Shown here piece after piece: positions 2,592 to 24,411 of a stretch of 24,551 bases of DNA. The DNA is taken from the IMG/VR virus record IMGVR_UViG_2545824713_000005. One strand, 5' to 3'. The notes beneath the pieces are model-generated. The model saw only the letters and a program-made list of their open reading frames with translations. It was not told where the DNA came from and made no database searches. Numbering within the stretch: the stretch's first letter is position 1; each line of letters starts with the position of its first letter. Position numbers and translations under genes: made by a program. This DNA is from a virus. Its lineage: Duplodnaviria; Heunggongvirae; Uroviricota; Caudoviricetes.

Positions 2592-3674
2592 TTAGAACTG
2601 GTAAACCATACCTACAGCAACGATATCATCGGTAGCAACGCCAGATGCTTTCGTGAAATCGCTCTTATCAATCAGGTTGATTTTGTAATCAACAAAAGTG
2701 GACATATTTTTGTTGAAGTAATAGGTTGCACCTACATCAATATATTCAACCAGGTCCTGATCACCCCACGCACCCAAGTCTTTTCCTTTAGATTGCAGGT
2801 AAGCAACGGACGGACGCAGACCGAAGTCGAACTGATATTGTGCAACTACTTCGAAGTTTTGTGCTTTGTTGGCAATATGGTTATTACCAAAAACAGTCAT
2901 GTTCTGGGTTTCAGAATAGGTGGTAGCCAGATAGATGTTGTTCGCATCATATTTCAGACCAGCTGCCCATACTTCAGCATTTTGACCAGATGCATTCAGG
3001 CTGTTGTTACCGTAGATAACCTGATTATTAGTGCGGTCAGATTTAGCATAGGTTGCACCTACACCGAATCCTTCATACTCATAAGTAGTGGAGAAACCGA
3101 AACCATCACCATTAGCTTCAGTTACGTCAGTGCGGTCATTTTTACCCTGATACTGAGCAGCAAAGTTCAGACCATCAACCAGACCAAAGAAGTCATTGTT
3201 ACGATAAGTTGCAACACCTGTGGTGCGACCAGTCATGAATACATCTGTTTGGGTCCAGGTATCGCCACCGAATTCTGGCAGAACGTCGGTCCATGCACCA
3301 ATATCGTATGCTACACCGTAGTTACGGCCATAATCGATGGAGCCGTAGTCACCGAATTTCAGGCCAGCGAAGGCAAGACGGGTTTTATCTTTGGAGGAAC
3401 CTTGAGATTCAGCGCGGTTGCCTTTGAATTCATATTCCCACTGACCGAAACCAGTCAGTTGATCGTTGATTTGGGTTTCACCTTTGAAGCCAAGACGGGC
3501 ATAAGTAGTATCACCATCATCTGCATCATTAGAGGAGAAGTAGTGCTTAGCATTAACTTTCCCGTACAGATCCAGCTTGTTACTGTCTTTATTATAAATT
3601 TCAGCTGCCTGAGCAGACATCGCCATCAGTACTGATGCAGCTACAGCAGAAATTGCCACTGTTAATTTTTTCAT
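2592..3674 (-). CDS. nmpC: Outer-membrane general porin, NmpC/Lc (OmpC/OmpF family), apparently intact
   Basis: 360-aa protein from [23 protein letters not shown] (signal peptide) AEIYNK... to C-terminal ...VGMVYQF (terminal Phe, typical beta-barrel OMP). The track ORF 2592-3734 is an upstream extension. No IS interruption seen. Confidence 0.9.
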
Positions 3675-19756: not shown

Positions 19757-20077
19757 TTAGCGGTTGATGGTTGCTTTTTTCGGGTCATACCATCTCGGCC
19801 ATTCTTTCAGGAATGGGAATGAGTCGGGAGCGTGGTTCTTTTTGTACGATTTAAGCAGCCTTAACCGCTCAATCGCACACTCATAAACCTCTTGTTGCCC
19901 TGTAGTCATCTCGGTCCATGAAAGGTGATCCATTGATAAGACAACGTTTTCAGCTTCTTTTATGAGGGCGTTTTTATTTCTCACCGCAGCAGCATGGCTG
20001 ACAGAGCAATCCTGCCATATTCTTAAAAGCCAAATAGCTAAGCAGATGAAAAAAATGGTAGAGAGCGATATGTACAT
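19757..20077 (-). CDS. Hypothetical single-pass membrane protein (106 aa), last gene of the mnt-side leftward cluster
   Basis: MYISLSTIFFICLAIWLLRIWQD... N-terminal TM helix; AAGGAG RBS; AT-rich codon usage unlike the flanking structural genes; convergent with gp16, 8 bp apart. Confidence 0.55.
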   Translation of the reverse strand: MYISLSTIFFICLAIWLLRIWQDCSVSHAAAVRNKNALIKEAENVVLSMDHLSWTEMTTGQQEVYECAIERLRLLKSYKKNHAPDSFPFLKEWPRWYDPKKATINR

Positions 20078-20157: not shown

Positions 20158-20658
20158 CTATTGAGAACGTTTGTCTTTTTGAGACTCTAATATAGCCAAT
20201 ACCTTATAAAGAGATTGGTTTGTTGAGTCTAATTTTTGATCAGTGTTATCAATCCTTGACTGTAATACTGATTGGTTGTTTTGGATAGTAGCCATTATCT
20301 CTGCCTTACTGGTTTGGATGTTTCCTGTTAGCTCTTGTCGTGATGATTCAACTTTATCATCTATAGTGCCTCGAATCGTCCATGTGGCGGCAACGATAGA
20401 ACCAATGATAGCAACTGCAACCCCGTATAGCTCTAAACGTTTCACGGTATCACGACCTTCTTCTTTGTGTTGCTCTTCTTGTAGGCTAAATATTTGTGGT
20501 TCCTTTGACGGATTTCTGTCAGTTGGTCTGTAATACTCTGAATATTTAGCGTTTTCTATTGAACTCCATAACGATTTGTCAAAGTCAAGGTTTTCATGTT
20601 GGCTTTGAGCATCTCCATAAATACTAGGTGATTTATTGTGAACATGTTGGTCAAACAT
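20158..20658 (-). CDS. Hypothetical membrane protein (about 166-170 aa) with central TM helix and C-terminal coiled-coil-like region; possible SieA-type exclusion protein
   Basis: Track ORF 20158-20670 begins at a GTG; I favour the ATG at 20658 with GGAG RBS. Central TM segment LYGVAVAIIGSIVAATWTI; start region overlaps the stop of the upstream Cys4 gene. Confidence 0.5.
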   Translation of the reverse strand: MFDQHVHNKSPSIYGDAQSQHENLDFDKSLWSSIENAKYSEYYRPTDRNPSKEPQIFSLQEEQHKEEGRDTVKRLELYGVAVAIIGSIVAATWTIRGTIDDKVESSRQELTGNIQTSKAEIMATIQNNQSVLQSRIDNTDQKLDSTNQSLYKVLAILESQKDKRSQ

Positions 20659-20998
20659 TATCTCCATCACCCTTTACGAATTTTCCAGAAGAGATATTTT
20701 CACTAACTTTGTTTAAACTAAAAAAGTGGAAGAAACCGCAAGTGGTGCATTGCATGGCTACCATGTTAAGACTATCGTTGCTATAAGTATCTTGATTAAC
20801 AGGATTATTAGGCAAGCTTTTACCTGGTATGGATGGGCCTATAACTTCAACACCATCATCTTTTTTAAGATGCTCAGGTGCTAAAAGAGTCCAGTTTGTA
20901 TTGCTGCATATTGGGCATACATAAGTTTTTTTGAATGAAGTCAAGTAATTACTAAAAGACTCAAAAGTAACTTTTAAGTATTGCTCCTTACTGCTCAT
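20651..20998 (-). CDS. Hypothetical Cys4 (zinc-ribbon-like) protein (115 aa), translationally coupled to mnt
   Basis: CPIC...(52 aa)...CTTCG motif; ATG overlaps the mnt stop (TAATG on minus strand); AT-rich. Confidence 0.5.
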   Translation of the reverse strand: MSSKEQYLKVTFESFSNYLTSFKKTYVCPICSNTNWTLLAPEHLKKDDGVEVIGPSIPGKSLPNNPVNQDTYSNDSLNMVAMQCTTCGFFHFFSLNKVSENISSGKFVKGDGDNV

Positions 20999-21237
20999 TA
21001 TTGGCCTCGAATCTTCTTAAGTACGCTAATTGCAATATCCATTGCTTCCTTCTCTGTTTTTGTGAGATCTTGAGATGTCGATGGTATGACCTTTTCTCTG
21101 TTAATCTTAATCCATAGCTGTATTGCAGCTATGATTTCAGCATTGATAGAGCGCCTGTTTGTTGCCGCAATGTGAGTAAGCTGCTGCTTGATTTCACTTG
21201 GCATTCTTACGTTAAATTGTGGATCGTTTCTAGCCAC
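20998..21237 (-). CDS. mnt: Mnt-like ribbon-helix-helix repressor (immI maintenance repressor)
   Basis: MARNDPQFNVRMPSEIKQQL... resembles the recalled P22 Mnt N-terminus (MARDDPHFNFRMP...); GTG start with AGGAGA RBS; divergent from arc. Confidence 0.85.
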   Translation of the reverse strand: MARNDPQFNVRMPSEIKQQLTHIAATNRRSINAEIIAAIQLWIKINREKVIPSTSQDLTKTEKEAMDIAISVLKKIRGQ

Positions 21238-21330
21238 GTCGCTCTCCTGTTATTTGTTGACATGCTAGAACGGTAGTAGTACGCTTTCAATAGTAGTACG
21301 GTGCTATCATTTAATGGAATGGAGTGGAAT
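21238..21330. promoter_or_regulatory. Divergent overlapping Pmnt / Pant promoter-operator region
   Basis: Plus strand TTGACA at 21257-21262 (Pant -35); on the minus strand -35 TTGAAA (21285-21290) and -10 TAGCAT (21262-21267) with 17-bp spacing (Pmnt); two direct copies of TAGTAGTACG at 21274-21283 and 21291-21300. Confidence 0.5.
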
Positions 21331-21492
21331 ATGCAAGGCGCAAGAAAAATGCCGCAGTTCAATTTGCGGTGGCCTAAAGAAGTATTGGATTTGGTACGCA
21401 AGGTGGCGGAAGAGAATGGTCGGTCTGTTAACTCTGAGATTTATCAGAGAGTAATGGACAGCTTTAAGAAGGAAGGGCGCATTGGCGCGTAA
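21331..21492 (+). CDS. arc: Arc ribbon-helix-helix repressor (53 aa)
   Basis: [53 protein letters not shown], near-identical to the recalled P22 Arc; start is the internal ATG with GGAG RBS inside track ORF 21301-21492. Confidence 0.9.
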
Positions 21493-21494
21493 AG

Positions 21495-21565
21495 TTGAAG
21501 CCCCAACTGCGGGAACAGTCAGGGCTTCGGTTGTCGGTAAATTCGTGGAGAAAAACCAACATGAA
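21495..21565 (-). ncRNA. Candidate sar-like antisense RNA covering the arc-ant intercistronic region and ant RBS
   Basis: By analogy with P22 immI: minus-strand TATACT -10 overlapping the ant start, and hairpin GAAGCCC...GGGCTTC at about 21503-21532. Ends not determined. Confidence 0.3.
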
Positions 21566-22496
21566 TAGTATAGCAATTTTAGAAGCAGTGAACACCTCTT
21601 ACGTGCCTTTCAATGGTCAGCAGATTTTAACCGCTGTGGCTGCCGGAGTGACTTATGTAGCGATGCGTCAAATTGTGGAAAACATTGGTATCGACTGGAC
21701 TGGTCAATCTGTTAAGTTGCGTAAAATGAAGGACAAATTCAACTGTAGAGATATCTCTATGGTTGCTGCTGATGGCAAGTTACGTAAGCTTTTATGCATC
21801 CCGCTGAAGAAGTTAAATGGATGGCTGTTCAGCATCAACCCTGAGAAAGTTCGTGCTGACATCCGTGATAAACTGATTCAGTACCAGGAAGAATGCTTTA
21901 GCGTGCTGCATGACTACTGGACTAAAGGTCATGTAGTTAACCCACGCAAAGCTAAAAAGGCGTTGCCGGGTAAAATCACCACTGAACAGCAGGAAGCCAT
22001 TAAACAACTCGTCATGAGTCGCGGTCAGTCTCTGCCAAAAGAAAAACAGGCTAAGGCGATGATCACCATGTGGTCGTCACTGAAATCCCATTTTGGATGT
22101 TCGTACAAAGAAATCAGTGAGGAGCAGTTTACCGAAGCACTATCACTTGCAGCTCGAGTTCCACTTGAAGGTGAGTTCATTGGCAAACAAGAGAAGAAAA
22201 CCAACGAGCTTTCTGCAAAAGAAGCAAACAGCCTTGTATGGTTATGGGATTATGCTAACCGCTCACAGGCATTATTCCGCGAACTGTATCCGGCATTAAA
22301 ACAAATTCAATCGAACTATTCCGGCAGATGCTACGACTACGGTCATGAATTCTCGTATGTTATCGGAATGGCGAGAGACGTTTTAATCAATCACACACGC
22401 GATGTTGATATCAATGAGCCAGACGGACCAACGAATCTTTCCGCATGGATGAGACTTAAGAATAAAGAATTACCTCCTTCAGTACATAACTACTGA
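21561..22496 (+). CDS. ant: Antirepressor Ant (311 aa)
   Basis: Start at [21 protein letters not shown]... with GGAG RBS (track ORF begins earlier at 21495); immediately downstream of arc as in P22 immI. Confidence 0.8.
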
Positions 22497-22596: not shown

Positions 22597-24411
22597 ATGA
22601 CAGACATTACAGCCAATGTGATCGTATCGATGCCTTCGCAACTTTTCACTATGGCGCGTTCTTTTAAAGCCGTAGCCAATGGCGAAATTTATATCGGGAA
22701 AATTGACACTGACCCGGTAAATCCTGAAAACCGGATTCAGGTTTATGTAGAGAATGAAGACGGTTCTCATGTTCCTGTTTCGCAACCAATAATCATTAAC
22801 GCTGCTGGTTACCCTGTATATAACGGACAGATTGCCAAGTTCGTAACTGTGCAAGGCCATTCTATGGCTGTTTATGATGCATATGGTGCACAGCAGTTCT
22901 ATTTTCCGAATGTTCTTAAATATGATCCTGATCAGCTTAAAGTATCTCTATCAGGGGAAGACGGTCTTAAATACATCGGGACATGCCCTGATATAGCAAT
23001 GTTAAGGACAATTGAGCCTGAGCGAGATCAGCAAAAGATTTTCGTCGACTTCCACACTACAGGCATGAAGCCGACAGTATCAGGTGATACTGGTGGTGGT
23101 CTGTTTGTGGCCGATTTCACAGATTCTACTTCTGCAGATGATAACGGCATGGTCATTGTCACTGCGGGTGGTAAACGCTGGAAACGTGATCTTCAAGGTA
23201 AGGGGTACGTAACACCACGTATGTTTGGAGCGTGGATGGATGCTCCATATATTGACTGGAGTACTATTCAGGCCACAGGGTATCCTAGAGCGCCAAGCAT
23301 GGGTGGCGTTGATTTAACAGGTGTAACAAATGATGGATTAGCACTTAATAAAGCTTATCTAACTAAGCTTCCTGTTTTCATAGACCAGCCTATATATATT
23401 GGTAACACTCAAATTGACATTAGCCAGTTTAGATGGGAAGGGATTAGTCTAAATCTATATGGGATTAATCCACAAAAAAGTATTGTTTATACATCAGGAA
23501 GTGGTGGTTTTGTTATGGGAAGTTGGGGGCACAATCTTAAAGTAAAGAATATGTGTTTTCGCAACGCTGACGATGAATATTCAGGTAGCCCATTGGTCAT
23601 TTCTGGTCAAACACAAACTTTTGGCGGTGGTAGTGAATATGATATTAAAAATAACATATTTCTACATTATAAATTTGCACTTCCCTTATCATGCTTTGTC
23701 AGTAATGTTACAAACAACCAAGCATATGATTGTATCTATGGTTTCGGTTTGGCTGGCACATCTACTACATTCTCTTCCAACTGGGCAAGGCATTGTGACT
23801 ACGGATATCTGTGGGGCGCGGCTATTGATAGAACAACATATGATCCGGTGAACAGTCCTTACCCATTGATGTATGTTAAGGCCACAAATATCGCGTCGGA
23901 TGGATGTAAATTACCACATAAGTTCTATCAATTTAGATCTTTAAGTATTGATGGTCTAGGTATTGAGGGTGTCACAGGAGATCATTGCTTAGATTTTACA
24001 GATATAGTTCAGCAGGATGCTACTTCGCTAATGGAGTTGTCAAATATCTCATGCGATCTTAAGGAAGACAATGCGGTAGGTGTGACGCACTTCATATCAT
24101 TGCCAACTAATGAACAGAATGGACCAACACAAGTTAGGATATCATCTGGATATGTTCGGGCACACAAAGGGATTACCCTTCTTAAGAATACATCTGACGA
24201 GTTAAGCCAGTATCAATGCCGTGGGTTTGATATTTGTGATGGGTTCAAATTCATAAAGCAAACAAGCGGTAGTTCTATCGCTGATGACTACGTTAGAGGG
24301 AGTAAATATCATTCAAGATTCTATGGTGAACATACAGGTATTGGTTATCAGACAGGCTCTAATGGCACTAAACTTTCAGCATTACATCAGGCATCTAGAC
24401 TGGCCCCCTGA
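22597..24411 (+). CDS. Tailspike protein: P22 gp9-like N-terminal head-binding domain plus divergent receptor-binding domain; 3' end interrupted by IS2 (last 5 codons and stop are IS-derived)
   Basis: First ~115 aa ([43 protein letters not shown]...NVLKYDPDQ) resemble the recalled P22 tailspike N-terminus; remainder is AT-rich and unrelated to it. ORF ends ...[10 protein letters not shown], where SRLAP-stop is encoded by TCTAGACTGGCCCCCTGA, the IS2 terminus. Confidence 0.8.

Follow-up and report, generated by a model that had tools for sequence, protein, structure and literature searches.

Arc and Mnt are textbook models of DNA recognition by a beta-sheet, and residue 6 of Mnt is the classic position at which the specificity of such a repressor can be switched. 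This residue is said to be a 'master residue' of specificity (Youderian 1983, Raumann 1995, and Silbaq 2002, as cited in PMC3413123 and PMC1184061), and grafting of the N-terminal residues of Arc onto Mnt reportedly switched the protein to the arc operator (Knight & Sauer 1989). In phage P22 both repressors act from the immI (secondary immunity) region. Here we describe the corresponding region of a 24,551-nucleotide stretch of DNA from a virus of the Caudoviricetes (IMG/VR record IMGVR_UViG_2545824713_000005), referred to as the window, in which the intergenic region between mnt and arc spans positions 21238-21330 (93 bp). We propose that this region is an immI switch that has kept the geometry of P22 and probably belongs to a different specificity class, with one predicted operator (O1) for Arc and a second (O2) for Mnt. 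The region between gene 16 and gene 9 is described as very variable among the P22-like phages (PMC2629481; PMC8022706).

Judged by its sequence, the locus is the complete immI module of a P22-like E. coli phage, comprising mnt, the face-to-face promoters Pmnt and Pant, arc, sar, and ant (Table 1). Positions 20990-21560 match Escherichia phage N7 (MH717096, Lederbergvirus) and phage HZ41 with 100% identity, and 41 complete E. coli genomes carry mnt with the intergenic region (20998-21335) at 99-100% identity. The divergent mnt and arc-ant units lie directly upstream of the tailspike gene, both in our list of open reading frames (ORFs) and in the annotation of the N7 record. A sequence-only reading made before this analysis, without database searches, had recognized a plus-strand TTGACA overlapping a minus-strand -10 element, TAGCAT, and had likened the overlapping divergent promoters to those of P22. 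Both elements were found, with base 21262 common to the two, and alignment with the P22 record (BK000583) bore out the comparison. The -35 and -10 hexamers of both predicted promoters, which share 34 bp (21257-21290), and the operator centers, at +15 and +43 from TTGACA, fall exactly at the annotated P22 offsets. The operator centers, G21272 at the Oarc position and G21300 at the Omnt position, are 28 bp apart as in P22. Pmnt was the sole sigma-70 site called by the promoter scanner; the Pant -10 is weak and scored under its threshold, yet it stands exactly at the P22 position.

The operators were delimited by comparison across a family of E. coli prophages, IMG/VR contigs, and diverged contigs of the same Mnt subfamily (Serratia, Pectobacterium, Yersinia, and metagenomes), which gave 22 unique regions. 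A 53-bp core running from TTGACA to the end of O2 aligned without gaps at a mean of 1.72 bits per column, compared with about 0.7 in the flanks, while the Mnt proteins of the family are just 61-85% identical. Its consensus, TTGACATg.TAGAACGGT.gTAGTACGCTTTCAAT.GTAGtACGGT.cTAtcA, can be parsed as a 9-bp unit, T[G/A]NTAGNAC, that is present four times (u1-u4). The first two units form O1 and the last two form O2. The TA steps of each pair are 11 bp apart (21266/67 and 21277/78 in O1, 21294/95 and 21305/06 in O2), which is the spacing of two Arc dimers on P22 Oarc, and they sit at the P22 offsets. Both pairs thus show the spacing of 10-11 bp between sub-site centers that marks operators of ribbon-helix-helix (RHH) proteins. 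The variable positions of the unit, 2 and 3, behave alike in u1, u2, and u3. Position 7 is A in u1 and T or C in u2-u4, which suggests that this position is read differently in u1.

Neither operator is identical to its P22 counterpart on the alignment of the two immI regions. The window nowhere contains the P22 Omnt, GGTCCAC-N-GTGGACC, whose best match (14/21) lies at an unrelated place. In its stead O2 reads as the pseudo-palindrome TAGTAC-G-GTGCTA, which becomes a perfect TAGTAC-G-GTACTA in Emek-type relatives and in a further locus of the family, L037. At the Oarc position, only 12 of 21 bases agree with P22 Oarc: of the two inverted TAGA boxes that make up the 21-bp P22 operator, a single TAGA box is found here, in u1, and the second sub-site is a TAGTAC that is best read in direct orientation.

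The repressor that would bind at the Mnt position is also changed. Mnt carries the N-terminus MARNDPQFNVRMP, compared with MARDDPHFNFRMP in P22, and matches the Pfam Arc family (PF03869, E = 4.8e-13). Its N-terminal RHH domain has Arg2, Asn8, and Arg10 as in P22 Mnt, and the Gln noted by the sequence-only reading in place of His6 proved to be no local oddity: the N-terminus is invariant in 61 homologue clusters across Enterobacterales, with Gln6 in 61/61. Identity to P22 Mnt is 48% over residues 1-40 only. BLASTP and phmmer detected no similarity to P22 Mnt past residue 40-41 and no C-terminal domain homologous to its tetramerization domain (residues ~50-82), and the best relevant sequence match in the PDB, 1MNT, covers residues 2-41 only. 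An AlphaFold2 model (mean pLDDT 78) has helices at 14-26 and 31-49, as expected of the RHH fold, and an additional helix, at 60-77, that is modeled with confidence. Foldseek searches with the monomer model returned the Arc-operator complexes 1PAR and 1BDV as best matches, all of them generic RHH matches with weak E-values, and gave nothing informative for the C-terminal helix. It is plausible that the modeled helix 60-77 is an analogue, not a homologue, of the tetramerization helix of P22 Mnt.

Arc is a 53-residue RHH protein identical to P22 Arc at 48/53 positions (91%), with Gln9, Asn11, and Arg13 as in P22 and an identical PQFNLRWP strand, so that the near-identity claimed earlier for its DNA-contacting strand stands. 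The accompanying assumption that Arc recognition is unchanged does not, since both the N-terminal arm (MQGARK here, MKGMSK in P22) and the operator at the Arc position are altered. The DNA-facing residues Gln6, Asn8, and Arg10 of Mnt are those of Arc (Gln9, Asn11, and Arg13), and Ala4-Arg5 in the arm of Arc proteins of this class align with Ala1-Arg2 of Mnt. An Mnt ribbon bearing the Arc triad would be expected to select operator arms that resemble Arc boxes (TAG...) rather than the GTCC of P22. T[G/A]NTAG is indeed common to all four units and to both P22 Arc half-sites, TGATAGAAG and TAGTAGAGT. No other sequence in the window comes as close to P22 Oarc as the reverse complement of O2, ATGATAGCACCGTACTACTAT (16/21), a score that 2 of 30 mononucleotide shuffles also reached. 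Both operators have the Mnt-type center AC-G-GT, as opposed to AG-C-AC in P22 Oarc, and we infer that the Arg contacts the operator center.

The association between ribbon and operator was then evident from about 190 IMG/VR loci tabulated with the N7, P22, and ST160 Mnt proteins as queries. Mnt proteins beginning MARDDPHFNFR (H6/F9) occurred at 82 loci; 75 of these carry AGGTCCAC-N-GTGGACCT or a one-base variant, the region is lost in 7, and 73 have an Arc with the MKGMSK arm together with an inverted Oarc. The type MGRDDPQFNLR (Q6/L9), which has a P22-like C-terminus and is the Mnt of ST64T, L, and ST160, was found at 65 loci with AAGACCAC-N-GTGGTC and without arc and ant. The type found here, M[A/S]R[N/T/D/S]DPQFNVR (Q6/V9), accompanies [G/A]TAG[T/C]AC-G-GT[A/G][C/A]TA at about 37 loci, and the roughly 34 of them that carry arc pair an Arc arm of the form xxGAR[K/N] with TAGAACGGT..TAGTAC. 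No mixed combination of ribbon and operator was seen among the tabulated loci. There are thus at least three natural Mnt specificity classes built on one common operator geometry. The prediction that the operator at the Mnt position would differ from that of P22 is therefore upheld, the TAGTAC-G-GTGCTA type being found only with the Q6/V9 ribbon.

The claim that residue 6 governs this specificity fared less well. The Q6/V9 ribbon does occur only with its own operator, but Gln6 alone is not the determinant, because the Gln6 Mnt of the ST160/ST64T/L type keeps a P22-like operator. A rule by which Gln6 confers Arc-box specificity was accordingly ruled out; the ST160-type proteins and another Gln6 Mnt (L044) stand beside AAGACCAC-N-GTGGTCT. 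A rule by which Val9 versus Leu9 decides was likewise unsupported, as two loci (L045 and L047) combine Leu9 with palindromes of the TAGTAC/TAGAAC type. A single chimera was present among 5,426 E. coli genomes, and none in phage records. In strain HNSQ2209 (L014, NZ_CP137737, 1116-1460) the sequence changes type at the start codon of mnt: Mnt is of the Emek type, with Gln6, whereas Arc and the intergenic region, which holds Oarc and Omnt (GGTCCACGGTGGACC), are of the P22 type, and the Pant -35 is TTGGCA. We considered this strain as a natural mismatch experiment, with TTGGCA as a possibly compensatory change. The idea was dropped and nothing is concluded from the chimera, because it is a singleton and TTGGCA was also met in one ordinary IMG/VR locus of the P22 type.

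Several further loci widen the range of ribbons and sites. The ST64T/L/ST160-type Mnt (L007, which is ST160, and L138-L202) always stands beside AAGACCAC-N-GTGGTC, in which the central N takes all four bases. In more distant phages (L040-L047), proteins of the form M-A-R-N-D-P-Q-F-N-[L/V]-R are found beside two to three palindromes TAnnAC-[G/C]-GTnnTA, with a perfect TAGAAC-G-GTTCTA in L047. Phages SEN22 (L005) and CUS-3 (L006), likewise more distant, have another ribbon, PQVNLR, with TAGGTA/TACCTA repeats. A scan of genome contigs with the Mnt protein yielded just two loci, both distant (L009 and L010), which were set aside.

We infer which repressor binds which operator, in what oligomeric state, and with what regulatory outcome; the assignment is based on position, symmetry, conservation, and co-occurrence. 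Mnt is the proposed partner of O2, which occupies the Omnt position, is palindromic, is kept in L023, a locus with this type of Mnt where arc and ant have been lost together with O1 and mnt abuts the tailspike gene, and has an arm type found only with the Q6/V9 ribbon. O1 is assigned to Arc because it occupies the Oarc position, holds the only TAGA box, and is altered or displaced in L040 and L041, where the divergently encoded partner is not of the Arc type; both half-sites of P22 Arc are TAGA boxes. Pant would drive arc, ant, and the region covered by sar, and Pmnt would drive mnt and the three ORFs downstream of it. O1 lies between the -35 and -10 of Pant and over the -10 of Pmnt; its most likely occupant is an Arc tetramer, whose binding would close both promoters late in infection. 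O2 lies over the expected start of Pant and just upstream of the Pmnt -35, where it is most likely bound by Mnt, perhaps as a dimer of dimers held together by the C-terminal helix. In a lysogen this would keep ant off and leave Pmnt active.

The arrangement of the units bears on how the intergenic repeats are to be understood. The sequence-only reading had proposed two direct 10-bp repeats as a candidate operator, and exact copies of TAGTAGTACG are present with a start-to-start spacing of 17 bp. The 9-mer TAGTAGTAC occurs only at these two sites on both strands of the 24.5 kb (expected count 0.06; two or more copies in 0/100 shuffles). Family-wide, just TAGTACG of the 10-mer is conserved while the two bases before it vary (e.g., TGATAGTACG or TGGTAGTACG), and exact 10-bp identity is confined to the N7/Emek lineage. 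The 10-mers correspond to u2 and u3, each followed by a G, and therefore belong to two different operators instead of forming one; a single predicted sub-site type supplies the right half-site of O1 and the left half-site of O2. That the repeats should instead be a single Mnt operator, with one dimer on each copy, could draw on the exactness of an identity that is statistically unexpected. We nevertheless regard it as highly improbable, since copies 17 bp apart face different sides of the helix, all characterized Arc and Mnt sub-sites are 11 bp apart, as are u1/u2 and u3/u4, the exact identity is limited to one lineage, the palindromic partner u4 is conserved, and L023 has kept u3 and u4 but lost u2. 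Even less credible, and disfavored here, is that the repeats are non-functional, whether by chance or as a relic of duplication: their small size is all that speaks for it, and against it stand the low expected count and the conservation of the core (1.72 bits per column) next to diverging flanks and coding sequences (61-85% protein identity). A tentative alternative, which we consider rather unlikely, is that O1 is inverted as in P22, though imperfectly (TAGAAC-G-GTAGTA, right arm TACTAC), and that its direct-repeat appearance and the 10-bp repeat both arise incidentally from the self-similar GTAGTAGTAC and the -10 hexamer. Its center, G21272, would lie exactly at the P22 Oarc center, six of the seven specified unit positions would still match, and an Arc 91% identical to that of P22, which binds an inverted site, would be expected to fit it. 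The inverted reading, however, turns the near-invariant G6 into C or T in 18/18 cores (G in 17/18 when u2 is read directly, 0/18 when inverted), and only the direct reading brings the variable positions 2-3 of u2 into line with those of u1 and u3. A flipped sub-site is physically acceptable because the RHH dimer is two-fold symmetric; ParG, for example, binds its boxes in direct and inverse orientation (PMC3413123).

The division of labor between the two operators can be questioned on other grounds. Each repressor might bind both O1 and O2, with the difference lying in timing, amount, or oligomer stability. This would suit two proteins that share the ribbon AR..PQFN.R and four units that share T[G/A]NTAGNAC, and it is the supposed Mnt site, as the reverse complement of O2, that best matches P22 Oarc (16/21, with O1 at 12/21). 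We think it unlikely, given that u1 is invariantly TAGAAC while u2-u4 have T or C at position 7, that O2 alone persists after the loss of arc in L023, and that tight binding of Mnt to O1 would shut its own promoter in the lysogen. A related view, to which we give similarly little credence, is that Arc and Mnt have converged on one ribbon (Ala-Arg-x-x-Pro-Gln-Phe-Asn-x-Arg) and one 9-bp unit, and choose operators mainly by sub-site orientation and position 7; discrimination would then come from the geometry tolerated by the dimer-dimer interface rather than from different base contacts. Some observations do weigh against the assignment of O1 to Arc and O2 to Mnt. The ribbons of the two proteins are nearly the same and the four units are alike, O1 and O2 differing in position 7 and orientation, so the repressors could cross-bind. 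The Mnt tetramer is assumed by analogy, as the C-terminal helix is not homologous to the P22 tetramerization domain. The direct pairing of u1 and u2 is favored rather than proven, because the direct u2 beats the inverted one by a single conserved position (6.94 vs. 6.0 of 7). The Pant -10 (TACGCT) is a weak hexamer, and u2 may be invariant partly on account of constraints on the promoter. Finally, the association of ribbon with operator may be partly linkage, given that gene and site are adjacent, within 100 bp. On balance, the assignment of O1 to Arc and O2 to Mnt is still the reading that we consider probable.

Table 1. Features of the immI locus and its surroundings in the window (rc, reverse complement).
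Feature	Position	Strand	Evidence or remark
ORF (106 aa)	19757-20077	-	downstream of mnt
ORF (170 aa)	20158-20670	-	downstream of mnt
ORF (115 aa)	20651-20998	-	downstream of mnt
mnt	20998-21237	-	ORF, GTG start, 79-aa RHH repressor, ribbon ARNDPQFNVRMP (Gln6, Asn8, Val9, Arg10)
mnt Shine-Dalgarno, AGGAG	21244-21248	-	read from sequence, 6 nt upstream of GTG
Pant -35, TTGACA	21257-21262	+	same position as annotated P22 Pant -35; invariant in 18 unique family cores
Pmnt -10, TAGCAT	21262-21267 (rc)	-	promoter scan; 17-bp spacer; same position as P22 TATCAT
O1, predicted Arc operator	21263-21282	+	P22 Oarc position, center G21272; u1 + u2, direct
u1	21263-21271	+	TGCTAGAAC; only TAGA box, invariantly TAGAAC
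u2	21274-21282	+	TAGTAGTAC here; TGATAGTAC in many relatives
Repeat copy 1, TAGTAGTACG	21274-21283	+	u2 + G; overlaps first 4 bases of Pant -10
Pant -10, TACGCT	21280-21285	+	3/6 to consensus; 17-bp spacer; position homologous to P22 TATATT
Pmnt -35, TTGAAA	21285-21290 (rc)	-	promoter scan; same position as P22 TTGAGA
O2, predicted Mnt operator	21291-21309		P22 Omnt position, center G21300; u3 + u4, inverted; over expected Pant start
u3	21291-21299	+	TAGTAGTAC
Repeat copy 2, TAGTAGTACG	21291-21300	+	u3 + central G of O2
u4	21301-21309 (rc)	-	TGATAGCAC
arc	21331-21492	+	ORF, ATG start, 53 aa; Pfam Arc, E = 6e-31
sar antisense RNA	21493-21560	-	Rfam RF00262, full length, 94 bits vs. gathering score 43, E = 1.2e-20
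ant, antirepressor	21561-22496	+	Pfam P22_AR_N, E = 2e-42; P22_AR_C, E = 5.5e-30
Tailspike gene	from 22597		ORF list; N-terminal domain

Some features vary within the class or extend beyond the intergenic region. The Pant -10 is TACGCT, TACACT, or, with a 1-bp insertion, TACTACT (L013, which is PK8241, L015, and L033); this variation beside constant operator units hints at tuning of Pant strength. As sar is fully conserved, the post-transcriptional layer of ant control would be P22-like despite the differing operators. Two further exact copies of the operator-type unit TGATAGAAC occur within the tailspike gene as an inverted pair at a distance of 96 bp (23826-23834, plus strand; 23922-23930, minus strand). 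They are probably a coincidence, because about 1.5 matches to the degenerate unit are expected by chance per window.

The three ORFs behind mnt, which have the same orientation, occupy the place of orf59a and sieA in P22 and are predicted to be expressed in the prophage. None of them gave an informative Pfam match. The 115-residue ORF product has cysteine pairs (CPICS...CTTCG), and a TAATG overlap couples its translation to that of mnt; in L023, too, mnt is followed by a homologue. The other two products (170 and 106 aa) have hydrophobic stretches resembling membrane segments.

Database annotation of these genes deserves comment. In the N7 GenBank record (MH717096, 3009-3215), mnt is annotated from an internal Met as a 68-aa product beginning MPSEIK, which omits the DNA-binding beta-strand, and the start of arc is placed four codons early (3330-3503; window 21319-21492). 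The GTG start of mnt is used by RefSeq prophage annotations and by the Emek record. Databases name the N7-type Mnt merely 'Arc family DNA-binding protein'. The present analysis corrects the N7 annotation of mnt that lacks the DNA-binding strand.

By sequence comparison, the N7-type locus appears to be a new specificity variant of a very well-known switch; in a search of the literature, neither the N7/Emek-type operators nor their specificity were found described. Its natural ribbon and operator classes offer a ready-made data set for testing rules of RHH recognition, and L040-L047, SEN22, and CUS-3 together would make up a broad natural set for work on the recognition code. Differing operators also predict immI heteroimmunity between P22-type and N7-type prophages, which would bear on cross-induction by antirepressors in E. 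coli and Salmonella strains that carry several P22-like prophages. If Arc and Mnt did converge on one ribbon and one unit, the switch would be a natural case of operator discrimination by sub-site arrangement.

The closest described system, P22 immI, shares with this locus its gene order and orientation, promoter offsets, operator centers 28 bp apart, an Arc that is 91% identical, sar, Ant, and the tailspike gene downstream. It differs in that Mnt is here unrelated to P22 Mnt past residue 40 and has Gln6/Val9 in place of His6/Phe9. The operators have also changed in form, with TAGTAC-G-GTGCTA instead of GGTCCAC-N-GTGGACC at the Mnt position and direct TAGAAC/TAGTAC sub-sites with a CGG center instead of the inverted TAGA boxes of Oarc. 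The Arc arm (MQGARK vs. MKGMSK) and the Pant -10 (TACGCT vs. TATATT) are further differences.

Among Mnt proteins, those of ST64T, L, and ST160 also have Gln6 and a palindrome of their own at the same place, with the center AC-N-GT. In contrast to the N7 type, they have a P22-like C-terminal domain (76% identity to P22 Mnt) and Leu9, and they occur without arc and ant. Their operator, AAGACCAC-N-GTGGTCT, departs from that of P22 by two changes per half-site and is not of the TAG type. The mnt of L and ST64T has been described as a 'poorly conserved mnt homolog' (PMC8022706).

Other RHH proteins offer parallels in operator geometry. The heptads of the omega repressor are RHH sub-sites that occur in direct and inverted orientation. 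In ParG, similarly, a symmetric RHH dimer occupies short sub-sites of either orientation that are spaced by about one helical turn (PMC3413123). Unlike the switch described here, ParG and omega are regulators of plasmid partition or copy control with different ribbons, and the present locus has both orientations in adjacent operators of one phage switch.

The closest precedent for the N7-type Mnt is found in the engineered Arc/Mnt hybrids (Knight & Sauer 1989; Raumann, Knight & Sauer 1995; cited in PMC3413123 and PMC1184061), in which, as here, an Mnt scaffold with an Arc-type ribbon (Gln at the 'master' position) goes with an Arc-box-like operator. Unlike these hybrids, the N7-type Mnt is a natural family of 61 clusters across Enterobacterales; it keeps Arg2 and the Mnt-type center AC-G-GT, and its C-terminal domain differs. 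The engineered hybrid would thus have a widespread natural counterpart.

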